Source: Candidatus Gorgyraea atricola (GTDB taxonomy: Bacteria > Omnitrophota > Gorgyraeia > Gorgyraeales > Gorgyraeaceae). From it: a stretch of 64,000 bases of DNA. This document shows positions 7,719 through 52,300 of the stretch, piece by piece. Both the position numbers and the translations under genes were made by a program. Where the stretch lies: contig JAVCCW010000021.1 in assembly GCA_030765235.1 (NCBI GenBank), forward strand, positions 733-64,732. Reading direction: 5' to 3'. How positions within the stretch are numbered: the first letter of the stretch is position 1; every line of letters starts with the position of its first letter. The notes under the pieces are model-generated. The model did not search any database. It saw nothing but the letters and a program-made list of their open reading frames with translations, and was not told the DNA's origin.

Positions 7719-8078
7719 ATGGCGACTTTTTTAAGTTTGATTATTGGCGCATTAGCAGGCGTAGCCAGTGGTTTTTTTGGCATAGGCGGGGCAGTAATAA
7801 TAGTGCCGATGCTAGTGTATCTATTTAAGTTCCCGCAGCATTATGCGCAGGGCACTGCACTTGTTGCGCTTCTTCTGCCTATAGGTGTCCTGGCAGTCAT
7901 CCGATATTACCATGCAGGAAATGTAAATATAAAGATGGGCCTGTTTATAAGTCTTGGATTTTTTATAGGCGGATTTTTAGGAGCGCATTTAGCGCATTTA
8001 TTGCCGCAGTTGGTCCTTAAAAGGCTTTTTGGAGTCTTGCTCTTAGGTCTTTCTGCATACATGCTGATAGGTAAATAA
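7719..8078 (+). CDS. TauE/SafE (TSUP, DUF81) family membrane protein, single-repeat form
   Basis: GIGGAVIIVP motif typical of TSUP. Confidence 0.55.
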   Translation: MATFLSLIIGALAGVASGFFGIGGAVIIVPMLVYLFKFPQHYAQGTALVALLLPIGVLAVIRYYHAGNVNIKMGLFISLGFFIGGFLGAHLAHLLPQLVLKRLFGVLLLGLSAYMLIGK

Positions 8079-27711: not shown

Positions 27712-27737
27712 GTAGGCCAGGTTTAAACCTGGCCTAC
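27712..27737. repeat. REP-like palindrome GTAGGCCAGGTTTAAACCTGGCCTAC (copy 1 of 4; also 28552-28587, 42073-42098, 52221-52286)
   Basis: seen in sequence; followed by GTTTT. Confidence 0.8.
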
Positions 27738-28548: not shown

Positions 28549-28591
28549 AATGAGTAGTAGTAGCCCAGGTTTAAACCTGGGCTACTACGCC

Positions 28592-33931: not shown

Positions 33932-34126
33932 ATGATTATGAATAAGGAAAAATACTATTCAGCGACAGAGGCTGCTGAGTTTCTGGGCATATCAAAGCAG
34001 ACATTGATTCGCTATGAGAATAAGAAGGTATTCCCTAAGCCTAAGCGTAATGCTGTAAATGGATGGCGGGAGTATACTGAGGATGAGATCAGGCGTCTTA
34101 AGACCATAATGGGAAGGGAACGCTGA
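33932..34126 (+). CDS. small HTH DNA-binding protein (MerR/excisionase-type)
   Basis: SATEAAEFLGISKQTLIRYE helix-turn-helix. Confidence 0.55.
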   Translation: MIMNKEKYYSATEAAEFLGISKQTLIRYENKKVFPKPKRNAVNGWREYTEDEIRRLKTIMGRER

Positions 34127-35652
34127 TGGTTAAGCTGGCCAATACCTCAATAGGGTTGGATATCGGCACTCGCTTTATAAAGCTCGTTGAGCTTAAGAGG
34201 GCCAAAGACAACACTATTCTCCTGAATAAATTTGGCGTAAAGGAGATCCCAAAAGACCTTAAGATGGACAGGGATAAGGTGATCCTTCAGCTGATATCAC
34301 AGCTATTTTCTGAGAACAATATAAAGTTGCGCAATGTAAATATAGCTGCAGGCGGCCAGTCAGTCTTTGTGAGATTCGTGAAGCTTTTGCAGACAAAAGA
34401 GGACAAGCTCAAGCAAACAATGAAGTTCGAGGCGCAGAATCAAATACCATTTCCCCTGAACGAAGTGGCATGGGATTGGTCGCTGCTGGATAAAGACAAG
34501 AAGGCCACTAAAAAAGCAGTAATAGTGGCGATAAAAAAGAACCTGATAAATGATATGATCGCGAAATTAAAGAGCATAAAATTAGCTACTAACCTCATAG
34601 ATGTATCGCCCATAGCCCTTTATAATTGTATGAGTTTTAATGAGGATTATGAGGAGGCTAAGCTCGGCGCCATATTAGACATAGGTGAGCGCTCGAGTAA
34701 CCTGATCATCTTTAAACAGGGAAACATATGGATAAGGAGTTTTCCAATAGCAGGCGAGAGAATAACAGAGGCAAAAGAGCAGGGCATAGAGGAACTTATA
34801 GGAGAGATAGAACGCTCAATAGAATATTATTTTATGCAGAGCGGCGAAGAATCAGCTACAAAGAAGCTTAATGAACTTATCCTTACAGGAGGCGGTTCGC
34901 TGATCCAGGACCTTGTTGCCGCGATCTCTGCTAAGTTTGACATGGCCCCGAAAATACTTGATCCATTCAGGAAATTGCAGATAGATAAAAGTGCATTTTC
35001 CAATACAGAGTCGCAAGGTATTAAAAACCAGCTTGCCGTGGCTATTGGCCTTGGCTTAAGAGGTATGACAGGATTAAAGATAGAGGTAAACTTTCTGAAA
35101 GAGATACTTTTGGAGACTCAGCTTCTTGGCCAGAAGGGCCTATATTCAAAACTTTCAATGGCCATGACAGCAGTTATCATAGTAAGCTTTTCAATGTTTA
35201 TGAGACAGGACTATTCTGTAAAGAGGGCTAAGCTCGGCAAGATAGATGAGATGCTCGAACTTTACAGGACCTATGAGCCAAAGATAAAAAAGATGCAGGA
35301 TAAAGAGGATATATTAAAGGAAAAAATAGATGTCTTGCACCAGACAGCTTCATCAAGGGCTGTCTGGCTCGATTGCCTGAAGATAATCTCTGACATCCAG
35401 CCAAAGGAGCTTTGGGTTACAGATGTCTCAGGCATAGTCTCATTGGAGAAGAGCGGGCTTGCGAGATTGGATATGAGCGGTAAGGCTGCCTCGTACCAGT
35501 CAGTGACGAATTTTGTCTCGAGCCTAAAGTCTTCACCGATATTTATGGATGTAAAACCTATTTCTTCTTCTATAGAGACAGATGAGACAACACTCGAGGA
35601 AGTAGTGAAGTTTTCAATAACAATGGACGTAGTAGTGACGGAGAACGAGTGA
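34126..35652 (+). CDS. pilM: type IV pilus assembly PilM (actin-like ATPase fold) fused to PilN-like TM/periplasmic domain
   Basis: PilM-like N-terminus, TM helix near residue 350, PilN-like C-terminus. Confidence 0.7.
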   Translation: MVKLANTSIGLDIGTRFIKLVELKRAKDNTILLNKFGVKEIPKDLKMDRDKVILQLISQLFSENNIKLRNVNIAAGGQSVFVRFVKLLQTKEDKLKQTMKFEAQNQIPFPLNEVAWDWSLLDKDKKATKKAVIVAIKKNLINDMIAKLKSIKLATNLIDVSPIALYNCMSFNEDYEEAKLGAILDIGERSSNLIIFKQGNIWIRSFPIAGERITEAKEQGIEELIGEIERSIEYYFMQSGEESATKKLNELILTGGGSLIQDLVAAISAKFDMAPKILDPFRKLQIDKSAFSNTESQGIKNQLAVAIGLGLRGMTGLKIEVNFLKEILLETQLLGQKGLYSKLSMAMTAVIIVSFSMFMRQDYSVKRAKLGKIDEMLELYRTYEPKIKKMQDKEDILKEKIDVLHQTASSRAVWLDCLKIISDIQPKELWVTDVSGIVSLEKSGLARLDMSGKAASYQSVTNFVSSLKSSPIFMDVKPISSSIETDETTLEEVVKFSITMDVVVTENE

Positions 35653-36413
35653 TGTTAAAGACGCAGAAAGAAAAGACAATATTGAAGCAGGGCTTGATAG
35701 CGCTTGGCGCGATAGTGCTTATTTATATATTTGTGCTAAGTCCTTTTCTTGGAGATGGAAGCTCTATACTCGATGATGAGCTGGACCGGAAAGGCACAGA
35801 TATAAAAAAGTATATTGCCCGCACAGGGTCGCTCCCATCCAAAGAGAGTTTTAAAAAATTAGAGACCCAGACCCTTGAACTGGAAGAAAAGTTTACAGAA
35901 ATCATGGATTTTATAGATCCTGAAAAGACCAGAATAGCCCAGTCCACTACAGAGGCAGGCCTCTATTTCATAGATAAGCTGCACTCTTCAATGAAGAAGT
36001 TTTCAGATACTGCTGACGCAAAAAGCATAAGCCTTCCGGAAAATCTGGGTTTTGGCGACGGACTCCCAAAGGAACGCATGGTGGACACACTTCTCAGGCA
36101 ACTGGAGACAGTGGAGATGGTGACAGGTATATTATTAGAGAATGATACAACAGAATTTACGGCTATAAAACCGTTAAGGTCCATAGATTATATAGAATCG
36201 TTGAGTAAAGAAGTCCTTTACTCAGAGATACCCGTTCAGATCTCAGTGAAGATAGATACCGAGGCCCTTATATCTCTTTTGCTGGAACTTAAAAACGCGA
36301 GTCCTGTAGTCTCAGTAAAAGAGATGCATATAAAAAGCGGGGATCTTGATAATGGCAAGATAGAGGTAAGTCTCGTAATGAGTACATTTAATATAGCGCG
36401 AGCGACAGAATGA
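35649..36413 (+). CDS. PilO-like pilus assembly protein
   Basis: N-terminal TM, coiled coil, operon position. Confidence 0.5.
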   Translation: MMLKTQKEKTILKQGLIALGAIVLIYIFVLSPFLGDGSSILDDELDRKGTDIKKYIARTGSLPSKESFKKLETQTLELEEKFTEIMDFIDPEKTRIAQSTTEAGLYFIDKLHSSMKKFSDTADAKSISLPENLGFGDGLPKERMVDTLLRQLETVEMVTGILLENDTTEFTAIKPLRSIDYIESLSKEVLYSEIPVQISVKIDTEALISLLLELKNASPVVSVKEMHIKSGDLDNGKIEVSLVMSTFNIARATE

Positions 36414-36985
36414 TAATAAAAGAGAAGATAATATTTTTGTTGCTCTTGGTAGTTTCTATCGTGATATTGATCTTTGGGTTTGGGTCGCAGGGCAAGAAAA
36501 AAGAGGCGACAAGGGAATTGATGAAGGATATTGAGCTCGCGACCAAGAAGAGCAAGGCAAAGAAAAAGGCCGAGCTAAAAGACAGATGGGATTTTAGCGC
36601 GATAAAGGCATTCGATAAACTGACTGCCTATAACGTTCTTTTAAAACGCAGCCCTTTTTTCAAGGTCATGACTGAAGGCGGGGTTAAAAAGGCGGAACCT
36701 ATTGCTGTGAAGGTAGAGAAGAAAGAGCCGATCTTCAAATATAAGGGCAAAGTGACAATGGGCTCAAAGATAATGGTTGTTATTGAAGACCAGGGCACAG
36801 GCAAAAGTTTTTTTGCTAAAGAAGGGGACATGGTAGGCGATTTCCTGGTCTCGAGCATAGATGAGAAAGAAGTCGTTCTTAAAAAAAGAGGCGGGGAAGA
36901 ACTTGTATTGAGCGCTGCTAAAAAAGAAAAGAAAGTCAAGAAAGAGAAGAAAGAAGAGAAAGGCCTTAAAGATGAAGAAAAATAA
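36410..36985 (+). CDS. PilP-like / pilus assembly lipoprotein (Lys-rich)
   Basis: operon position only. Confidence 0.3.
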   Translation: MIIKEKIIFLLLLVVSIVILIFGFGSQGKKKEATRELMKDIELATKKSKAKKKAELKDRWDFSAIKAFDKLTAYNVLLKRSPFFKVMTEGGVKKAEPIAVKVEKKEPIFKYKGKVTMGSKIMVVIEDQGTGKSFFAKEGDMVGDFLVSSIDEKEVVLKKRGGEELVLSAAKKEKKVKKEKKEEKGLKDEEK

Positions 36986-39515
36986 AGGTTATATACTTAT
37001 AATACTGCCTTTGGTGTTTTCTCTCCTTCTATGTAGCAGCGCATCCGGATTTTCCAATGGCAGGACCATGGTGGCCTCAAAGGTCGATCTGAGGAGATAT
37101 TTTGAAAAGGCAATGTCTTTATTTGAAAGCGGTAAATACAGAGAGTCTGTCATTGTATTCGAAAACCTCATAGAGATAGAGACCTCTCAGAAAGAGTCTT
37201 ATTTTACGCCTTTTGCAGAAATATACATCGATAAATCCAGGGCCAGGATGAAGGAATTAATGATGCTGGAGGACAGGAAATGGGCCAAGATGAAAAAACA
37301 GGTCCTGAGCGAGGCAGAGAAAATAGCCCAGGATGAATTAGACCAGATTGCAAAAAAGGAAGAAAAGAGGTTATTGGAGGAAGAGCAGAGGATTTTGCGC
37401 GAAGAAGAAACAAGGAGAAGGCGAGCTCAACAGGCTCAGAGGAAAAAGATAGATGCGTTAGGGCAGAACGCGAGAGAGACTTACGAGCAGGCCTTGGCTT
37501 ATTATAGAAAAGGAAACTACCCCATGGCTATCGTGGAGTTTAAAAAGATAAAGGAGTCGGACCCTGAAAATAGGCTGGTTTCGCAGGCAGATTCTTTTAT
37601 AGGTAAGGCGCAGGGCCAGATAAAGGCGCAGGAGGAGAGAGAGCTTTTAGCAAGGATGGAGGCTGCGAGGCGCGCAAAGATCGAGATGGAACTGGAGGCG
37701 CGGCAAAAACAGATAGAAGAGGAGCGTCGCGAGAGGGAACGCGCGAGAAAAGAAAGAGAGAAAGAAAGACTTAGAAAGATATTTGAGGCCAGGCTCAAGG
37801 CAAAAGAGATAAGAGACAGGATCGTGAGGATAGAAGGTTTGACAGATGATATAAGAAGAAAGGTAAAAGAGAATAGATTTAACGAGGCAGAGGTTCTTTT
37901 AAATATAGCCATGGCAGAGTTTCCTGAGAATGAAAGATTCAAAGACATGTCTCACTATGTCGAGAAGCAGAAGATCAAGAGACAGGAAGATGCCTTGAAA
38001 AGGGCAAGGGAGATCGTAGAAGAAAATATGCTTTTAGAGGTGGCTAAAAAACACCTGCTCCCTGAAGAAAAATACGGCACTCTGGAGAAAAAGAAAGAAA
38101 TAATGCATCTTGTCAAAGTCCCTAAGATAAGAAAACGCTTGAAGATACCCATCAGTGTTGATTTTAAGGATGTAGAGCTGGATTATGTCCTGAGTTTTCT
38201 ATCTGACGCAACAGGTGTCAATATAATACCATCTGGCGAAATAGACATGGAGGAGAAGCTTGTTACCATAAAGATCAGGGATATGCCGCTCGAGGACGCA
38301 CTAAAATATATCCTGAAATCGCAGGAGCTTGTCTACAGGATAGAAGAGGACGCTGTATGGGTAACAACAGAGGAAGAACTCGATAACGAACAGATAGAGA
38401 CGCGGGTATATTTTTTGGAAGAGGGCGTTGGCAGGTTTGCGGACTTTGAAGGGACCTTTGATTCTGAAAGCGGCACCTCTTCCGCCTCCACAGAAGTAAA
38501 GACAGTAAAGGATGTGCTTGAAAATGCTGTGGATTGGCCAAAGGATTCAAAGCTGACCATGGATGATCGCACAGGCGCGCTTATAATAAGCAATATCCCT
38601 TCAAATCTCGAGGTCGTTGAAAATCTGATCTATAATCTCGATGTCACTCCAGTGCAGGTCCTGGTCGAGGCAAAGTTTCTGGAAGTAAAGATCACTGATA
38701 CAGAGGAGCTGGGTGTCGAGTGGAAGCTGAATAGTGATTGGGGGACCAAGCAGAATCAATCGAAACAGAACCTGCATGGTTTTGCATCCAATAGCGGAGT
38801 GGATTTTTCTGATTTTGCTAATGCAGATTATGGTTTTAATCTTACATATCAGGGCATATTGAGTCACCCGCAGTTTCAGGCAATACTTCACGCATTCCAG
38901 CAAAAGCAGAATGTAAAAACACTTTCTGCGCCCAGGATAACCACTTTAAATAATCAGACAGCTACTATAGAGGTCATAGATGAATATATATATCCCACGA
39001 GATATGAGGTGAGTTTAGTGCAGTATGACATAAACGGAGACGGAGATTTTGACGATGCAGGAGAGACAGAATGGGCAAACATACCTCAGGATTTTGTGAC
39101 CAGGGATGTGGGTATACTCCTGCATGTCAAGCCGAGCGTAGGCGTGGACAATAAGACCATCACACTTGCCTTGACACCAGAAGTGAGTGAGCAGGATTCC
39201 AGTACATCGGCGTATTCATATTCAGGAGGTGTTTCAATACCTAACTTTAAGACCAGGAATCTAAGCACAAGTGTTATTATTGAAACTGGCGAGACAGTTG
39301 TGATGGGCGGGCTGATAAGCGAATCAAACACAAACACAAAGACCAAGGTGCCTTTTCTTGGCGATCTGCCTATAGTAGGGGGACTCTTCAGAAAGAATTC
39401 CGAGGGTGTTGAGCGCAGGAATCTCTTGATATTTGTCACTGCGACTATTTTAGATGATAGTGAGAGGGTAATGGTAAATGTCCCTGAGACTGAACCAATA
39501 AGGCGAGAGCAATGA
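36972..39515 (+). CDS. secretin (PilQ/GspD family) with about 330-aa E/R/K-rich coiled-coil N-terminal extension
   Basis: secretin C-domain NLLIFVTATIL..., N-domains; paralogous to next gene. Confidence 0.8.
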   Translation: MKKNKGYILIILPLVFSLLLCSSASGFSNGRTMVASKVDLRRYFEKAMSLFESGKYRESVIVFENLIEIETSQKESYFTPFAEIYIDKSRARMKELMMLEDRKWAKMKKQVLSEAEKIAQDELDQIAKKEEKRLLEEEQRILREEETRRRRAQQAQRKKIDALGQNARETYEQALAYYRKGNYPMAIVEFKKIKESDPENRLVSQADSFIGKAQGQIKAQEERELLARMEAARRAKIEMELEARQKQIEEERRERERARKEREKERLRKIFEARLKAKEIRDRIVRIEGLTDDIRRKVKENRFNEAEVLLNIAMAEFPENERFKDMSHYVEKQKIKRQEDALKRAREIVEENMLLEVAKKHLLPEEKYGTLEKKKEIMHLVKVPKIRKRLKIPISVDFKDVELDYVLSFLSDATGVNIIPSGEIDMEEKLVTIKIRDMPLEDALKYILKSQELVYRIEEDAVWVTTEEELDNEQIETRVYFLEEGVGRFADFEGTFDSESGTSSASTEVKTVKDVLENAVDWPKDSKLTMDDRTGALIISNIPSNLEVVENLIYNLDVTPVQVLVEAKFLEVKITDTEELGVEWKLNSDWGTKQNQSKQNLHGFASNSGVDFSDFANADYGFNLTYQGILSHPQFQAILHAFQQKQNVKTLSAPRITTLNNQTATIEVIDEYIYPTRYEVSLVQYDINGDGDFDDAGETEWANIPQDFVTRDVGILLHVKPSVGVDNKTITLALTPEVSEQDSSTSAYSYSGGVSIPNFKTRNLSTSVIIETGETVVMGGLISESNTNTKTKVPFLGDLPIVGGLFRKNSEGVERRNLLIFVTATILDDSERVMVNVPETEPIRREQ

Positions 39516-41014
39516 TAAAGAGAATTCTTATATATTTATTTATTGGGTTGCTTATTTTGCCAGGGACTATTTTTGCCTACGAGGTTCACTCTTTAAGGGA
39601 TAGCGATGATGTTGAAAAATATTCTATCGTAGATGTCCCTGAGATAAGAGAAAAACTCCAGACTCTCATAACAGTGGATTTCAGGGATGTGAGTCTTGAT
39701 TATGTGCTGGATTTTCTATCAGAGGCTACAGGCGTAAATATAATCGCGGGCCCGAGTGTTGAGCCTGAGGATAAGAAAGTAACTATCAGGGTAAAGGATA
39801 TGGCGTTAGATGGTCTTTTAAAATATATCTTCAGGAATCAGGGCCTTGTTTACAGGATAGAGAAGAACGCGGTATGGGTGGATACATTTGATGCTATGGA
39901 GGAAGAGACATTAGAGACAAGGATCTACTATCTGGATCAGGGCCTTGCCATGTTCACGGAGTTTAGCGGCAAGACAGCCAGTTCAACAGGAGAAGGTTTT
40001 GGAGGCGCAGCAGGCATATCCAATGTCAGTACCATAAAGGATGTGCTTGAGGATGCAGTGGTCTGGCCAAGTGATTCCAAGATAAATTTAGATGAGCGCA
40101 CAGGCGCGCTTATTGTGACCAATAGCCCATCGAATCTAAAGATCGTAGAAGATATACTTTATAATCTAGACATTGATGCAACGCAGATCTTGATAGAGAC
40201 AAGATTCGTTGAAATAAATGTTACAGACCTGAGCGAGTTAGGCGTAAATCTTAGCCTGGACAGCCCTTTTGCCATCTATAAAGATGCAGGTGTGCCAGTA
40301 AACCAGATCTCCAGCGGAAGCGGTTCAGATTTTTCACCATTTACTGGAGCGCCCAATGAAGGGCTTAATCTCACCTATCAGGGCATGCTGACAAAGCCGC
40401 AGTTCTCAGCAGTACTGCACGCGCTTGAGAGGACAACTAAATTAAAAACACTTTCCGCGCCAAAGATTACTACCTTAAATAATCAGACTGCGACTATAGA
40501 AATAGTAAATGAGTTTGTATATCCCACGAGATATGAACCGACTTTAATAAAACAGGATTTAGACGGAGATGGAAAATATCTCAGCACAGTAGATGGTGTA
40601 AACGAAACAAGATTTGTAAATGTAGCACAGGGTTTTGAGACAAGGGATATAGGTATATTACTTCAGGTAACGCCAAATGTGGGAAGCAACAAGGAGACCA
40701 TTACATTGACATTAAGGCCTGAGGTGAGTGAGGCGACCCGGGATGCATTTGTATTCAGCGGAGAAGTCAGCCTACCTAAATTCACCACAAGGAATCTTAC
40801 CACGAATGTAATGGTAAAAAACGGCGAGACCATAATGCTTGGCGGTTTAATAAAAGAGACCAGGACTAATACGCGCACAAAGACACCTTTTTTAGGGGAT
40901 CTGCCTTTGCTGGGTGTATTATTCAGAAAAGACTCGGATAGCGTTGAGCGAAAGAATCTCTTGATATTCGTGACCGCCAGCATCCTGAGCCAGAGCGGGG
41001 AGAAACTACGATGA
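39512..41014 (+). CDS. second secretin paralog (500 aa), translationally coupled
   Basis: collinear similarity to previous gene (VDF.DV.LDYVL.FLS.ATGVNII..., NLLIFVTASIL). Confidence 0.8.
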   Translation: MIKRILIYLFIGLLILPGTIFAYEVHSLRDSDDVEKYSIVDVPEIREKLQTLITVDFRDVSLDYVLDFLSEATGVNIIAGPSVEPEDKKVTIRVKDMALDGLLKYIFRNQGLVYRIEKNAVWVDTFDAMEEETLETRIYYLDQGLAMFTEFSGKTASSTGEGFGGAAGISNVSTIKDVLEDAVVWPSDSKINLDERTGALIVTNSPSNLKIVEDILYNLDIDATQILIETRFVEINVTDLSELGVNLSLDSPFAIYKDAGVPVNQISSGSGSDFSPFTGAPNEGLNLTYQGMLTKPQFSAVLHALERTTKLKTLSAPKITTLNNQTATIEIVNEFVYPTRYEPTLIKQDLDGDGKYLSTVDGVNETRFVNVAQGFETRDIGILLQVTPNVGSNKETITLTLRPEVSEATRDAFVFSGEVSLPKFTTRNLTTNVMVKNGETIMLGGLIKETRTNTRTKTPFLGDLPLLGVLFRKDSDSVERKNLLIFVTASILSQSGEKLR

Positions 41015-42012
41015 ATAAAATAATTAATATTAAAGATGTAGCGAAATCTGCAGGCGTTTCTATTGCAACAGTCTCCAGGGTCATGAATGGATTGTCTACG
41101 GTTAAGAAAGAAAATAAGTCCAGGGTCCAGGCCGCGGTAAAAAAACTCAAATTCAGGCCCAATGTGAGCGCTCAGCGACTTGCATCAAAAAGCAATAACG
41201 CCATAGGCCTTGTTATCCCGAGATATGCTGATATGTTTCATTCATTTTATGCTCTGCAGATTCTGCAGGGTGTCGGCGCAGGCGTAGAGAAATTAAAACT
41301 GGATCTACTTTTACATATTACCAACGGAGAGACATTTTTAAATACCTCGGCGCTGGAGGGAGTGATATTTTCCGATATCATAGGAAACGAAGAACAGGTA
41401 GACAACGTGCTTAAGATCGATATACCGTGCGTGATCATGAATTATTTGACCAGGGATTTGCCAGTGAGCTGCGTTTCTATTGATAATTTCAATGCAGCGA
41501 TCAAGGCAGTGGAATATCTTGCTAAACTCGGACATACAAAGATCGCCACTATTGCAGGTGAATTAAAATCGCAGGTAGCTATTGACAGACTGGATGGATA
41601 TTTAAGTGGTCTTGAAAAGAAAAAAATAGAGAAAAGGAAAAATTTTGTAAAATACGGAGACTTTGGAAGAGACTCTGCGATCAGGGCAACAAAGGAGCTT
41701 ATAAAGATGAAGACTCCTCCTACAGCCATATTTGCCGCGAGCGACGAGATGGCTGTGGGTGCCATACAGGTCTTGCTTGAGAGCGGGGTCAATGTACCTG
41801 AAGATATTTCTGTGATAGGGTTCGATGATAATCAGTTGGCCCTGAATTTTTCTCCAATAGCCCTTACTACAATAAGGCAGCCCTTGCACAAGATGGCTGT
41901 TACAGCCACAGAGACACTGCACAAGATCATTACAGGGAAGATCAAAGGCAATAAGCGGATCACGCTTCCGTGCGAACTCATAGAACGCTCTTCCTGCCAA
42001 TCGTTAACCTAA
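41011..42012 (+). CDS. LacI-family transcriptional regulator
   Basis: N-terminal IKDVAK.AGVS.ATVSRV HTH, periplasmic-binding-like core. Confidence 0.85.
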   Translation: MNKIINIKDVAKSAGVSIATVSRVMNGLSTVKKENKSRVQAAVKKLKFRPNVSAQRLASKSNNAIGLVIPRYADMFHSFYALQILQGVGAGVEKLKLDLLLHITNGETFLNTSALEGVIFSDIIGNEEQVDNVLKIDIPCVIMNYLTRDLPVSCVSIDNFNAAIKAVEYLAKLGHTKIATIAGELKSQVAIDRLDGYLSGLEKKKIEKRKNFVKYGDFGRDSAIRATKELIKMKTPPTAIFAASDEMAVGAIQVLLESGVNVPEDISVIGFDDNQLALNFSPIALTTIRQPLHKMAVTATETLHKIITGKIKGNKRITLPCELIERSSCQSLT

Positions 42013-42142
42013 CTTCACGCTTAGGTTGACAATTCCAACCTCCACCTTTACAATATACTTAACTTTACATTAGTAGGCCAGGTTTAAACCTGGCCTACAG
42101 AAGATGAGCCTTGCACGAGTCTAAAGTTGTGTTTGTTTTAGT

Positions 42143-43105
42143 ATGATTAGAACTATTTTAGATAAGGTTTCCTCTGGCAAAAAGTTGGGGTTTAAAGAGG
42201 CGAGGATTCTCTTGAATGCAGACAGAGGAGAATTACCTTTTTTGATGCATGCCGCTGATACTGTCAGGCGGGAACATTGCGGCAATAAGATGAATCTTTG
42301 TTCTTTGATAAATGCAAAAAGCGGCCTGTGTTCAGAGGACTGTAAGTTTTGCGCGCAATCCGCAAGACACAACACAGGTTGTGAGGTTTATTCCCTGGTT
42401 AGCGTCGAGAAAATGATAGACGCGGCTAAAAAGGCAAAAGAGATAGGCGCTGCTAATTTTTGCATAGTGATTAGCGGAGAAGGGCCGACCAAGGAAGAAT
42501 TTGAGGATATAAAAAAGGCAATTGCGAGAATTAAAAAAGATGTGGGTATAAAAGTAGACTGTTCTCTTGGCAGGCTTGATGAGGCTATGATTAGAGAACT
42601 GAAGGAACTGGGCATTGACAGATATAATCATAATCTTGAGACCTCAGAGAATTTTTATAAAGAGATCTGCACGACACATGCTTACAAGAATAGATTGGAT
42701 ATGGTGGGTATGTTAAAGGATGCGGGGTTAGGGCCTTGCTGCGGCGGGATTATAGGCATGGGCGAGGGAGTTGAGGATAGGCTGAAACTTTTGTTTACCT
42801 TGAAGGAGCTTGGCGTAAAATGTGTGCCCATAAATATACTTAATCCAAGAAAAGACACCCCGCTCGAGGACATACAGCCGCTTTCACCATGGGAGATTAT
42901 AAAGACAGTAGCGGTTTTCAGGCTGGTCCTGCAGGATGCTATTATAAAGGTAGCAGGTGGCAGGGAATTAGGGTTACGTGACATGCAGGCAATGGCATTT
43001 ACCTCAGGCGCAAACGGCATGATAATAGGAGGCTATCTAACTACAAAAGGCAGATCTGTAGAGCAGGATCTACAGATGGCAAGAGACTTGGGATTCAAAC
43101 TTTAA
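42143..43105 (+). CDS. bioB: biotin synthase
   Basis: radical SAM, CKFCAQS-type cluster motif, YNHNLET. Confidence 0.9.
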   Translation: MIRTILDKVSSGKKLGFKEARILLNADRGELPFLMHAADTVRREHCGNKMNLCSLINAKSGLCSEDCKFCAQSARHNTGCEVYSLVSVEKMIDAAKKAKEIGAANFCIVISGEGPTKEEFEDIKKAIARIKKDVGIKVDCSLGRLDEAMIRELKELGIDRYNHNLETSENFYKEICTTHAYKNRLDMVGMLKDAGLGPCCGGIIGMGEGVEDRLKLLFTLKELGVKCVPINILNPRKDTPLEDIQPLSPWEIIKTVAVFRLVLQDAIIKVAGGRELGLRDMQAMAFTSGANGMIIGGYLTTKGRSVEQDLQMARDLGFKL

Positions 43106-43115
43106 GGAGGAGCAT

Positions 43116-44054
43116 ATGAAATTAGCAGTCTTAGGGGCAGGGGGATTAGGTAAGGCGTGTTTGGATGTTGTGGCAAAGAAAAAAGACGCTAAGGTTGTCG
43201 CGATCTGTGATTCAGAGGGGTATCTATATTCTGAGAAAGGCATAACTACTCAAGATCTGGGAAGATCCAGGGCCTCAAAGGACCCCATAGGCGAGATCAT
43301 AAAGTTAAAAAATAAATACGACGGTATTTTTGTAGCGCTTCCGAATTTGCCAAATGAATTTATTCCAAACGTAGTAAAGCGTTTCATAAAAGCAAAATAC
43401 AGCGGAGTTTTTACATGCGCGTTGAAGCGCACAAGCGCGATGAAATTAATGATGAAATTAGATGCCGGATTGAAGAAGAACAAAAGCACCTATATAGCCG
43501 GGTGCGGCGCAACACCAGGACTTTTATCAGCTGCGGCAGTGTTGGCAGCGCAGTCATTTACAGAGATCGAGGATGTAAATATCTGGTGGGGGGTAGGTAT
43601 CTCGAACTGGGATACATACAGGGCAACGATCAGAGAAGACATTGCGCATCTCCCAGGTTATACAGTCATGCGCGCAAAAAGAATGACAGATAAAGACGTG
43701 AATGATCTTTTAAATAAGAGAGATGGAAAGCTTGAGCTGCGTAATATGGAACACGCTGACGATGTCTTGCTCAAAAAAGCAGGCGTTGTGGATTCCATGA
43801 AAAAGGTTTCAGTGGGCGGCGTAATGGATACAAGGCATGCAAAAAAGCCTGTTTCCACGACCATGACACTCACAGGCACGACATTCGAAGGTAAGCGTTC
43901 CAGTCACAGGTTCATACTTGGAGACGAGACATCCATGGCAGCCAATGTGATCGGCCCTGCGCTCGGCTACCTGAAGCGCGCCATCTGGCTAAAACAACAC
44001 AAGATCTACGGCATATTCGGCTCCACAGAATTCATGCCCATGATCCTAAAGTAG
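43116..44054 (+). CDS. NAD(P)-binding Rossmann oxidoreductase in the bioA position; candidate BioU-type (S)-8-amino-7-oxononanoate to DAPA enzyme
   Basis: VLGAGGLGK dinucleotide fold; located between bioB and bioF with no bioA in the cluster. Confidence 0.4.
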   Translation: MKLAVLGAGGLGKACLDVVAKKKDAKVVAICDSEGYLYSEKGITTQDLGRSRASKDPIGEIIKLKNKYDGIFVALPNLPNEFIPNVVKRFIKAKYSGVFTCALKRTSAMKLMMKLDAGLKKNKSTYIAGCGATPGLLSAAAVLAAQSFTEIEDVNIWWGVGISNWDTYRATIREDIAHLPGYTVMRAKRMTDKDVNDLLNKRDGKLELRNMEHADDVLLKKAGVVDSMKKVSVGGVMDTRHAKKPVSTTMTLTGTTFEGKRSSHRFILGDETSMAANVIGPALGYLKRAIWLKQHKIYGIFGSTEFMPMILK

Positions 44055-44075
44055 ACAAAACAGTCACTGACGGAA

Positions 44076-46112
<2,037 letters not shown>

Positions 46113-46156
46113 CTTTATATTTGAAATAGACTTATTTGATGTTAAAATAGAATATT

Positions 46157-47182
46157 ATGAAGATAAGGGGAAAATTTCTCACAACTGGAATAGGTAGTCT
46201 GCCGCTTCTTGATGCGAAGAAGGGTGTTGAAGTGGTCTGCAAAAATTTTGACATACCATTCTGGCCCCAGCTTCCAAAAAGAGGTTTTAAAGAGAACATG
46301 TATACGCAGTTTGCCGTAGGGCTACCTTCCTTAGTTATAGACGAGAAAAATCGAAAGATCCACGTTGATAGCACAAAGGATTTGAGCGAAGAACTGGGCA
46401 AACTATACGAGTCCTATATATCAGAGGATTATGCTTCGCTTGGCCTTACAAAGGACTTTGCCGAGGGGTTTTACGCATTTTTAGACGCGGAAAAAAAGTT
46501 TGATCATGTAAAGGGTCATATTACAGGACCTATAAGTTTTGGCCTTGGTGTTACAGATGAAAAAGGAAAATCTATAATATATAATGACACGCTTAAAGAA
46601 GCACTGATCAAGCTTTTGGAGATCAAGGCTAGCTGGCAGATAGATAAACTAAAAGAACTTTCCAAAAATATCATAATATTTATAGATGAGCCATACCTAA
46701 CGAGTTTTGGTTCCAGTTATGTAAATTTAGAACGCCATGACGTAATCTTAGCGCTCAATGCAGTCATAGATAAGATCCACGCAAAAGGCTGCCTTACGGG
46801 TATTCACTGCTGTGGCAATACAGACTGGTCATTGCTCGCAGAGACATCAGTTGATATAATAAATTTTGATGCCTATTTATATGCGGAGAGCCTTTCGCTA
46901 TACCCTAAAGAAATAACAGGGTTTCTGAAAAAAGGAGGATATCTCGCATGGGGCATTGTACCTACGTCTGATTCAGTGTTGAAAGAGGACGAGAAGACCC
47001 TATTTAATAAATTATCCAAAGAAATAGCAAATCTGGAGAAAAAAGGAGTCCCTCGAAATTTATTGATCTCTAATTCTTTGCTTACCCCAAGTTGTGGCAT
47101 GGCTACGCTTTCCGAAGAGTTGACTAAAGATATAATAACAAAGCTTACCAAAGTTGCACAATTGGCAAAGAAAAACTTATAA
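46157..47182 (+). CDS. MetE C-terminal-domain-like (URO-D/CIMS family) Zn-dependent methyltransferase, short form
   Basis: IHCCGNTD and TPSCGMAT resemble MetE Zn ligand motifs (H.C ... C). Confidence 0.5.
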   Translation: MKIRGKFLTTGIGSLPLLDAKKGVEVVCKNFDIPFWPQLPKRGFKENMYTQFAVGLPSLVIDEKNRKIHVDSTKDLSEELGKLYESYISEDYASLGLTKDFAEGFYAFLDAEKKFDHVKGHITGPISFGLGVTDEKGKSIIYNDTLKEALIKLLEIKASWQIDKLKELSKNIIIFIDEPYLTSFGSSYVNLERHDVILALNAVIDKIHAKGCLTGIHCCGNTDWSLLAETSVDIINFDAYLYAESLSLYPKEITGFLKKGGYLAWGIVPTSDSVLKEDEKTLFNKLSKEIANLEKKGVPRNLLISNSLLTPSCGMATLSEELTKDIITKLTKVAQLAKKNL

Positions 47183-47189
47183 AGGTTAC

Positions 47190-48302
47190 ATGAAGACTAG
47201 AATTCTTGCACTAGGTGCGCAGTCAAAAGGCAGCTTTTGCCTTATTAAAAATGGAAAACTCCATGTTTCAAACTCCTTTGGAGACCTGAGTGAGGCAGAG
47301 AATTTTCATCGCTTTGAAAAAGAGATAAAAAAAATAAAACCAGAGCCAAAGCTTATAGCGTGCGATATGCATCCGGAATATGCTTCAACTAAGCTGGCAA
47401 ATAATTTAGCTAAAAGCGTAAAAAGGATTCAGCATCATGAGGCGCATGTGGCAAGCTGCATCGCAGATAATAATATTAAAGGTAAGATAATAGGCATTGC
47501 ATTTGACGGCACTGGATTTGGCAGAGACGCTAATATCTGGGGCGGAGAGTTTTTTGTAGGTAGCATTAAAGACCTTAAGAGAGCAGCACATCTAAAATAC
47601 GCCTCTATGCCAGGAGGAGAAGCAGCAGTAAGAGAACCCTGGCGCATGGCCTTTAGCTATCTTCGTGCTTCTAATCTAGCAAATCTAACCAGGTTAGATA
47701 AGGAGAAAACAAGACTTCTCGCGCAGATGATGGATAAAGATATAAATTCGCCTCTTACTTCTAGCATGGGTAGACTTTTTGATGCAGTATCGTCGCTTGT
47801 TGGGATTTGTGATAGGGCAGAGTATGAGGGGCAGGCGGCGGTTGAGCTGGAGAGAGCTATTGAGGGACCCCATACGAAAATCAAAGATTTCGTACGGGGC
47901 AGGCAAGGGACAAGGGACCCCATACGAAAATCAAAGATTTCGTACGGGGCAGGCAAAGGACAAGGGAAGTATAGCTTCACATATAAAGATGGTATTATTG
48001 ATTGGACGCCGGTTATCAAGGCTATAGTTAAGGATTTAAAGGCTAAGAAGAGTAAGGGTGAGATTTCGCTTAAGTTTCATAATGCGGTTTGTCATATGAT
48101 AAAGGATGTCTGTATTTTATTGAGAAAGAAATATAAAATCAACAGGGTCTGTATGAGCGGCGGCGTGTTTCAGAATAAGTATTTATCGAAAAATACACCA
48201 CCACTTTTAGAAAAAGAGGGATTCAAGGTATATTTACATAAGAATTTGCCTAGCCACGACGGAAACATTGCGTTAGGCCAGGCAGTATTAGCCGGAGCAT
48301 AA
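47190..48302 (+). CDS. hypF: HypF C-terminal (Kae1-like carbamoyltransferase) domain only; carries a 2 x 50-bp tandem repeat insertion
   Basis: HHEAH motif, C-terminal SGGVFQN...HDGNIALGQA; no acylphosphatase/Zn-finger/YrdC part. Confidence 0.65.
   Translation: MKTRILALGAQSKGSFCLIKNGKLHVSNSFGDLSEAENFHRFEKEIKKIKPEPKLIACDMHPEYASTKLANNLAKSVKRIQHHEAHVASCIADNNIKGKIIGIAFDGTGFGRDANIWGGEFFVGSIKDLKRAAHLKYASMPGGEAAVREPWRMAFSYLRASNLANLTRLDKEKTRLLAQMMDKDINSPLTSSMGRLFDAVSSLVGICDRAEYEGQAAVELERAIEGPHTKIKDFVRGRQGTRDPIRKSKISYGAGKGQGKYSFTYKDGIIDWTPVIKAIVKDLKAKKSKGEISLKFHNAVCHMIKDVCILLRKKYKINRVCMSGGVFQNKYLSKNTPPLLEKEGFKVYLHKNLPSHDGNIALGQAVLAGA
47868..47967. repeat. two tandem 50-bp copies of CCCC-ATACGAAAATCAAAGATTTCGTA-CGGGGCAGGCAAGGGACAAGGGA inside the hypF-like CDS
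   Basis: seen in sequence; ORF stays open. Confidence 0.85.
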
Positions 48303-48303
48303 C

Positions 48304-48510
48304 ATGTGTTTAGCTATACCAATGAAGATTAAAAAAATAGAAGGCGACAGGGCCATTGTATCCAGTGGCAGTGTAGAGCGCAGGATCGCCATAAATTTTC
48401 TGACTAGCCCCAGAATAGGCGATTATGTAATGGTGCATGCAGGTTTTGCAATAGAAAAGCTCGACCCTAAACAAGCAGAGGAAACACTTGAAATACTTAG
48501 ACGAATTTAG
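48304..48510 (+). CDS. hypC: hydrogenase maturation factor HypC
   Basis: MCLAIP N-terminus. Confidence 0.85.
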   Translation: MCLAIPMKIKKIEGDRAIVSSGSVERRIAINFLTSPRIGDYVMVHAGFAIEKLDPKQAEETLEILRRI

Positions 48511-49570: not shown

Positions 49571-49977
49571 GTTACGTCAATCTTTGATTGACGTAACTTA
49601 TAAGTCCGAACTTGACCCCCACACCAATTATGTATTATGTATATGTGATAAAAAGCAGAAAAGACAGTGAGTTGTATATAGGATTTACAAATGATCTAGA
49701 GCGTAGAATGAGAGAACATGATAGAGGTAGAGTTTCTTCTACTAAAGCAAGAGCGCCTTTTAAATTGGTGTATTGTGAGGCATATGGCTCTGAAAAGGAT
49801 GCTCGAGCTAGAGAGTTAAACTTAAAATTAAGATCTCGTGCTTTTACGCAGCTGAAGAAACGAATAGAAGCAAGCGTATCTACATAATTGGTGTGGGGGT
49901 AAATTCGCACCTTCACAGAAGTTAATCAAGGAGATTCAGTTGCATCATCCTATGGATGATGCAACTGAAGTGCTCAT
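49556..49977 (+). mobile_element. composite element copy B carrying a GIY-YIG gene between the CCCCCACACCAATT / AATTGGTGTGGGGG inverted repeats; left end overlaps hypD stop, right end abuts hypE ATG
   Basis: same module order as copies A and C. Confidence 0.6.
49630..49887 (+). CDS. GIY-YIG nuclease family protein, YhbQ/UPF0213 type
   Basis: YVYVIKS..ELYIGFTNDLERRMREH matches YhbQ FLYLIRT..KLYTGITTDVERRYQQH. Confidence 0.8.
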   Translation: MYYVYVIKSRKDSELYIGFTNDLERRMREHDRGRVSSTKARAPFKLVYCEAYGSEKDARARELNLKLRSRAFTQLKKRIEASVST

Positions 49978-52216: not shown

Positions 52217-52300
52217 TATTTTGTCATTGCGAGCGAAGTAATAGTAGGCCAGGTTTAAACCTGGCCTACTATTACGCAATGACAATTGTAGGAGGCGACA

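Follow-up and report, generated by a model that had tools for sequence, protein, structure and literature searches.

Candidatus Gorgyraea atricola belongs to the phylum Omnitrophota and is represented by MAG 3300035698_32 from Ace Lake, Antarctica (PMC10066038 supplementary tables), which is 98.2% complete with 0% contamination and comprises ca. 1.74 Mb in 30 contigs (PMC10066038). The stretch of this genome analyzed here, 64 kb in length and referred to as the window, carries four genes on the + strand in the order bioB-bioU-bioF-bioD. The first of them, bioB (42143-43105, +), encodes a biotin synthase of 320 aa with Radical_SAM and BATS domains (TIGR00433, 394.7 bits; cutoff 225), and the third, bioF (44076-45263, +), scores 469.5 bits with TIGR00858 (cutoff 426.45) and stays under the respective cutoffs with the models for Kbl and serine palmitoyltransferase. 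The last gene, bioD (45214-45882, +), encodes a dethiobiotin synthetase of 222 aa that matches AAA_26 and TIGR00347 (156.8 bits; cutoff 83.3). The identities of these three genes were set by NCBI curated equivalog cutoffs, all of which are passed, and the bioB-X-bioF-bioD cluster described in the first-pass annotation is thereby confirmed. The gene in second place lies at exactly the position given there, 43116-44054 (+), and is an ATG-started open reading frame of 312 aa (N-terminus MKLAVLGAGGLGK) whose product, based on its match to NF047886, its similarity to Synechocystis Slr0355 and its fold, we consider a BioU homolog and the predicted NAD(P)-dependent maker of diaminononanoate carbamate.

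The bioU start codon is preceded at a distance of 5 nt by an AAGGAGG Shine-Dalgarno sequence that abuts the stop codon of bioB. Intergenic gaps are small (10 nt between bioB and bioU, 21 nt between bioU and bioF), and the first ATG of bioD lies inside the end of bioF, giving these two genes a 50-nt overlap; the arrangement is therefore operon-like. A pN/pS of 0.076 in comparison to a 95%-identical relative (L009) shows that bioU is a real gene under strong purifying selection. The operon indeed lacks BioA, as had been read from the sequence at the outset, and a tblastn search with E. coli BioA found no BioA-like or other class-III aminotransferase sequence in the whole 64-kb window (best E 5.4), an absence that holds for these 64 kb of the ca. 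1.74-Mb genome. Presumably, bioA is also absent from the rest of the G. atricola genome. No genes of the pimeloyl-thioester pathway were seen in the 64-kb window either.

A sigma-70-like promoter upstream of bioB (TTGACA-17 nt-TACAAT; 42026-42054, +) agrees with the consensus at 11 of 12 positions and is the best-scoring promoter-like site within 41800-48500, as judged by consensus match only; an equivalent TTGACA...TAAAAT is kept in relatives. Its -35 hexamer is overlapped by the right half of an inverted repeat, TcGTTAACC-N14-GGTTGACAA (42001-42032, +), the left half of which falls within the terminal codons of a LacI-family gene further 5' (41011-42012). This candidate BirA operator fits the published BirA consensus TTGTAAACC-N14/15-GGTTTACAA (TGTwAACC-N14/15-GGTTwACA; PMC545781) in sequence and spacing and is almost identical to the BirA sites of Geobacter, TTGTtAACC-N14-aGTTgACAA and TTGTcAACC-N14-GGTTgACAA (PMC545781). 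A single copy of the motif is present in the window, and the loci of 12 Omnitrophota relatives likewise have one copy each ahead of bioB. As in the known BirA-bioO regulon of group II biotin protein ligase/repressors, an inverted repeat with the published consensus and spacing precedes the leading gene of the bio operon and overlaps its promoter, though, different from that system, no birA was found in the 64-kb G. atricola window. The candidate operator places bioU in a predicted biotin regulon, and, by analogy to studies of BirA regulons, we infer that BirA would bind to it and regulate the operon.

We found no support for the neighboring LacI-family gene (41011-42012) as regulator of the operon, given that the site has half-sites and spacing of the BirA type and persists in one of the 12 relatives (L004) where the upstream gene differs and is not a LacI gene. 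A BirA-box-like sequence, GGTTTACC-N14-TGGTTAAC, was also observed before a bioB-bioU-bioF-bioD cluster of an unclassified, non-Omnitrophota MAG (L056, position 7858 on the - strand, 5' of bioB at 7890), which suggests that BirA control of bioU operons extends beyond one phylum.

The leader of bioB additionally contains a perfect 26-nt palindrome, GTAGGCCAGGTTTAAACCTGGCCTAC (42073-42098), that is predicted to fold as a stable hairpin in the RNA (MFE of the leader, -27.9 kcal/mol; z -3.3). It is present four times in the window (27712-27737, 28560-28585, 42073-42098 and 52244-52269; 0 copies expected by chance), and all four copies are intergenic and lie shortly 3' of a + strand gene, with the one at 28560 showing two compensatory changes that preserve the stem. 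The sequence is not kept in the leader of the closest relative (L009), and the bioB leaders of relatives have hairpins of other sequence at the same position. The palindrome therefore looks like a copy of a REP-like dispersed hairpin element that is not specific to bio genes, and we rejected it as a biotin operator in view of its four dispersed copies and its lack of conservation in L009.

Several lines of evidence identify the 312-aa protein as a member of the BioU family. The NCBIfam model for BioU, NF047886, covers its full length with an E of 5e-115 (383.9 bits), far ahead of any other NCBIfam family (1e-4 for the second-best). When the sequences of the PDB were searched with phmmer, the chains of Slr0355 were the sole matches (E 2.5e-92, residues 2-310), and the identity to this Synechocystis protein is 48.6% over 319 columns of a full-length blastp alignment. 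Pfam recognizes ELFV_dehydrog only, at residues 2-63 and with 28.6 bits. The Rossmann motif GAGGLG at residues 7-12 (LGAGGLGK at 6-13) has invariant glycines at G7, G9, G10 and G12, and the AlphaFold2 (AF2) model predicts a beta-alpha-beta element at residues 2-32.

The catalytic residues of BioU can be traced in the structures of Slr0355 themselves. PDB chains 6itd and 6k37, entitled K124A, read ALARTSA in place of the wild-type ALKRTSA, and chain 6k38, entitled H233A, reads MEAADD in place of MEHADD. Lys124, which in the published mechanism donates its epsilon-amino group and is thereby destroyed (PMC12704756, PMC12915131, PMC9302846), corresponds to K104 of the G. atricola protein (ALKRTSA), its predicted donor lysine, and His233 corresponds to H213 (MEHADD). 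Both positions are invariant in 202 out of 202 aligned family sequences, an alignment that comprises the window protein, Slr0355, 120 database matches and 80 genomic loci (14 of them cyanobacterial), and so are the motifs LPNLPN, LKRT, GATPGLL, REDIAH, MEHADD and GDET-MA-NV-GP. When 1.84 billion representative proteins were searched exhaustively, we obtained only 66 matches, about six of which are full-length clusters. The two most divergent full-length representatives, P0249 (36% identity; K to D) and P0251 (31% identity; H to Y, with REDIAH lost), each lack one of the two residues, so that the presence of K104 and H213 is informative because such rare paralogs do exist. P0249 and P0251 themselves may be paralogs with a different, possibly nonsacrificial chemistry.

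The predicted structure leads to the same assignment. The AF2 model of the bioU product (pLDDT 89.2, pTM 0.88) superimposes on the BioU structures 6itd, 6k36, 6k38, 6k37 and 6ir4 with TM scores of 0.92-0.93 and an rmsd of 1.7-1.8 A, and the next folds are those of meso-DAP or D-amino-acid dehydrogenase (TM 0.58-0.59; 14% identity at TM 0.58) and of lysine and saccharopine dehydrogenases, all at TM 0.57-0.62 and 12%-17% identity. Like BioU, the dehydrogenases acting on meso-DAP, D-amino acids, L-lysine, saccharopine and carboxyspermidine are NAD(P)-dependent and built from two domains and, as the next-best structural matches, are the source of its generic name at NCBI, but they are clearly set apart by their low TM scores and identities, and Pfam sees only the first ca. 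60 residues of the Rossmann domain. None of these dehydrogenase families turned up in the exhaustive search of 1.84 billion representative proteins. The first-pass annotation had proposed a candidate BioU in the place of bioA, and this proposal is supported by sequence, residues and fold alike: similarity to Slr0355 extends over the full length, the donor lysine is kept along with the histidine, and the best structural matches (TM 0.93) are BioU structures and not the diaminopimelate or saccharopine dehydrogenases that would have pointed elsewhere.

The surroundings of bioU were compared across 80 loci, which are the best-matching ones from species-representative genomes. Within 10 kb of bioU, we found bioF in 36, bioD in 35, bioB in 21 and bioA in none of these 80 loci. 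In Omnitrophota relatives, bioB-bioU-bioF-bioD precede a MetE-like gene, after which come hypF(C-terminal half)-hypC-hypD-hypE-hypA. The order in a Poribacteria MAG is bioB-bioU-bioD, and in a MAG labelled Nanoarchaeia, bioF adjoins bioU in the company of bioD and a gene for a BioC-like methyltransferase. Clustering with bio genes was seen at none of the 14 cyanobacterial bioU loci, and the same holds for homologs from one MAG each of the Nitrospirota and Desantisbacteria. The closest relatives of the G. atricola protein, at 76%-95% identity, all come from Omnitrophota MAGs, some of which are labelled "uncultured Planctomycetia"; a look-up by exact sequence returned no record for the G. atricola protein itself.

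The first-pass annotation had considered a BioU-like gene outside the cyanobacteria to be notable, an expectation that did not survive our survey of the family. According to a scan with just two peptide patterns, BioU is encoded in at least 581 species-representative genomes, which belong to many phyla, and hundreds of non-cyanobacterial ones have homologs with the catalytic residues of BioU. In a protein search, 3641 clusters reached E <= 1e-10. Among the genomes listed by the pattern scan are those of Omnitrophota, Desantisbacteria, Schekmanbacteria, Armatimonadota, Abditibacteriota, Sumerlaeota, Coatesbacteria, Planctomycetales, archaea-labelled MAGs and cyanobacteria; those of the Abditibacteriota include the cultured Abditibacterium utsteinense and a complete genome of 7.4 Mb. 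One match (P0243) keeps both catalytic residues and has an acidic composition that is suggestive of a haloarchaeal origin. In a crude neighbor-joining tree, midpoint-rooted and built without an outgroup, the cyanobacterial proteins make up one of several clades, and G. atricola BioU falls into an Omnitrophota clade distant from the cyanobacterial one. We regard the G. atricola protein as a further representative, from one more phylum, of an enzyme family that was already known; it does not constitute a new type of system.

We note that bio clusters containing BioU also occur on contigs of MAGs labelled as Methanosarcinales or Nanoarchaeota (L027, L029, L030, L043/L008 and L047), and that the proteins from these contigs group together in the tree. 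If the MAG labels are right, BioU is also found in archaea; labels in this set are unreliable, and several Omnitrophota-like contigs are tagged "uncultured Planctomycetia".

Current naming practice follows the cyanobacterial branch of the family. The equivalog naming cutoff of NF047886 is set to 600 bits, which is exceeded by cyanobacterial proteins (629-638 bits) and failed by the G. atricola protein with its 383.9 bits, as by all seven of the seven non-cyanobacterial homologs tested (383-458 bits). Because this cutoff passes the cyanobacterial proteins and none of the others tested, non-cyanobacterial homologs carry the generic NCBI name "saccharopine dehydrogenase-like oxidoreductase". The 600-bit threshold thus marks the cyanobacterial clade and not the presence of the catalytic features.

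Taken together, we estimate a probability of nearly 0.9 that 43116-44054 encodes a BioU ortholog which replaces BioA in the bioB-bioU-bioF-bioD operon of Ca. Gorgyraea atricola. Our data show the homology, the BioU fold, the retention of both catalytic residues, the setting in an operon and an operator-like motif kept in relatives, and the enzymatic activity and single-turnover chemistry of the G. atricola protein are extrapolated from work on the Synechocystis enzyme. Following the published BioU mechanism (PMC12704756, PMC12915131, PMC7133116), BioF would supply 8-amino-7-oxononanoate, which BioU would condense reductively onto K104 using NAD(P)H. BioU would then carboxylate the K104 conjugate and, with NAD(P)+, release 7,8-diaminononanoate carbamic acid, a reaction in which the lysine would be destroyed so that each BioU molecule could work only once. 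Subsequently, BioD would close the ureido ring before BioB inserts sulfur, and a BirA-type regulator would probably repress the operon at the operator overlapping the -35 box.

BioU shares with BioA the pathway step and the kind of operon position. BioA, the PLP- and SAM-dependent 7,8-diaminononanoate synthase, is a class-III aminotransferase of unrelated fold and different cofactor, and it acts catalytically, whereas BioU is a single-turnover protein that also delivers the carbamate. The closest characterized counterpart, Synechocystis sp. PCC 6803 BioU (Slr0355; 6ir4, 6itd and 6k36-6k38), agrees with the G. atricola protein in length class and fold (TM 0.93), in the GxGGxG motif, Lys124 and His233 and in the LPNLPN, LKRT, GATPGLL, REDIAH, MEHADD and GDET motifs, and bioU is found in the company of bioF, bioD and bioB, with no bioA in the vicinity. 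The two differ in that identity is limited to 48.6%, that the G. atricola protein lacks ca. 13 loop residues after residue 50 and that it belongs to a separate Omnitrophota clade at a large distance in the tree. Furthermore, cyanobacterial bioU genes stand alone (0 of 14 clustered with bio genes), whereas the G. atricola gene is part of a compact operon with a BirA-like operator.

We weighed three other explanations, each of them less likely than a functional BioU that replaces BioA. The first is that BioU is functional but redundant, with BioA also encoded in the genome and the two routes being used under different conditions, for instance BioU when S-adenosylmethionine or PLP is limiting. 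Other Omnitrophota do carry bioA, and our bioA search covered the 64-kb window of the genome. We nevertheless regard this redundancy as unlikely, since the two genes occur together within 10 kb in none of the 80 loci, the BioU-encoding genomes of Synechocystis and Dolichospermum are without bioA according to the literature, and a genome as small as ca. 1.74 Mb is unlikely to keep two routes.

A second possibility, to which we give marginally less credence, is that the protein performs the same step from 8-amino-7-oxononanoate to diaminononanoate as a multi-turnover reductive aminase that draws on a free donor such as ammonia, lysine or glutamate and spares its own lysine. After BioU itself, the closest structural relatives are indeed multi-turnover amino-acid and amine dehydrogenases, identity to the sole characterized BioU is just 48.6%, and the literature searched holds no biochemistry for this clade or for any other non-cyanobacterial BioU. 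However, the donor lysine and the equivalent of H233 are invariant in all 202 members from all phyla, and the whole family amounts to a handful of clusters at 50% identity; invariant residues and so few clusters argue for one conserved chemistry.

The remaining idea, a BioU-family paralog that acts on another substrate (e.g., in amino-acid or polyamine metabolism) and sits in the operon by coincidence with BioA as the true synthase elsewhere, could appeal to the generic NCBI name, the NF047886 score under the equivalog cutoff, those Nitrospirota, Desantisbacteria and cyanobacterial homologs that do not adjoin bio genes and the coverage of the bioA search, which was the 64-kb window, but it is very improbable for a gene that is lodged between bioB and bioF at distances of 10 and 21 nt and preceded by a BirA-like operator, in an arrangement kept in relatives and with bioA within 10 kb in 0 of 80 loci, and whose product has the fold and catalytic residues of BioU itself when divergent paralogs are recognizable and differ at just these residues.

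In the literature searched, the scope of which did not include the original description of BioU, the enzyme is described from cyanobacteria only, and its discoverers may already have noted homologs outside this phylum. The KEGG module for the BioU route, M00950, has been applied generically to MAGs, and the protein called "BioU" in work on Wolbachia and Ehrlichia is an esterase that shares the name and is unrelated. For the Omnitrophota, one survey that considered the BioA-based route only reported biotin synthesis as present though not universal (PMC10066038), and a preprint scoring only the BioA-based module described biotin synthesis as "uniformly partial", bioA having been detected in 66 of the 176 genomes (10.64898/2026.06.07.730766). 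Neither of them mentions BioU (PMC10066038; 10.64898/2026.06.07.730766), and, since only the BioA route was scored, they may under-call biotin synthesis in this phylum.

The assignment of BioU replacing BioA in G. atricola gives a specific function to a gene that NCBI labels generically and closes what looked like a bioA gap in biotin synthesis by a member of the Omnitrophota. No new mechanism is revealed. Compact operons of the BirA type, as found here, provide cleaner context evidence for the function of BioU than the scattered genes of cyanobacteria, and counting BioU would change some biotin calls and hence some inferences of vitamin dependence. A broader proposal, for and against which we see about equal weight, is that BioU constitutes the standard diaminononanoate route across a wide range of phyla, for the most part uncultivated (Omnitrophota, Abditibacteriota, Sumerlaeota, Desantisbacteria, Schekmanbacteria, some Planctomycetota and possibly archaea), of which the cyanobacterial proteins are one branch. 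If so, the "partial biotin pathway" calls that back a host dependence of Omnitrophota would be annotation artefacts in many genomes, because pipelines name the cyanobacterial branch only and surveys scored only the BioA module, and G. atricola itself would be a biotin prototroph for the steps of ring assembly.

Downstream of bioD, a 341-aa open reading frame at 46157-47182 (+) separates the bio genes from hypF. Its product is 100% identical to a database protein of Ca. Gorgyraea atricola. It has no Pfam match and a weak one (E 3e-9) to NF002119, a model for short archaeal-type methionine synthases; its family is widespread in Omnitrophota, where it is annotated as "methionine synthase", and follows bioD in eight close relatives. 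Its candidacy as a new biotin gene is unsupported, as this is a phylum-wide family with a short MetE-like annotation and, across the 80 loci, it follows bioD only in a close Omnitrophota clade. Judging from these sequence comparisons, it is probably a core MetE-like enzyme and a component of neither the bio nor the hyp gene set. The end of bioD is overlapped by an open reading frame of 84 aa (45858-46112, +) with one predicted hydrophobic segment at the N-terminus and no family match, which is found in the same place in L002 and on the short contigs L090-L092.

The hyp genes beyond have peculiarities of their own. HypF (47154-48302, +) consists of the C-terminal Kae1-like half only, with 382 aa that correspond to positions 390-739 of the 741 in TIGR00143, and it is similarly truncated in relatives (367-376 aa). 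We saw none in the neighborhood that would encode the other half of HypF (acylphosphatase, zinc-finger or YrdC-like), and this half-form raises the question of the carbamoyl-adenylate source for [NiFe]-hydrogenase maturation in the lineage. Between hypD and hypE, there is a stand-alone GIY-YIG nuclease-domain open reading frame of 91 aa (49612-49887, +; PF01541, E 2e-17), which looks like a small lineage-specific insertion because hypD directly precedes hypE in L002 and L004.

Immediately upstream of the LacI-family and bio genes, the window contains a cluster resembling type II secretion or type IV pilus systems (34126-41014, +) that is also present in L002. It encodes a PilM-PilN fusion of 508 aa, a T2SS-M-like protein and two secretins in tandem, the first of which (847 aa) has a long N-terminal extension composed of a charged coiled-coil and TPR.
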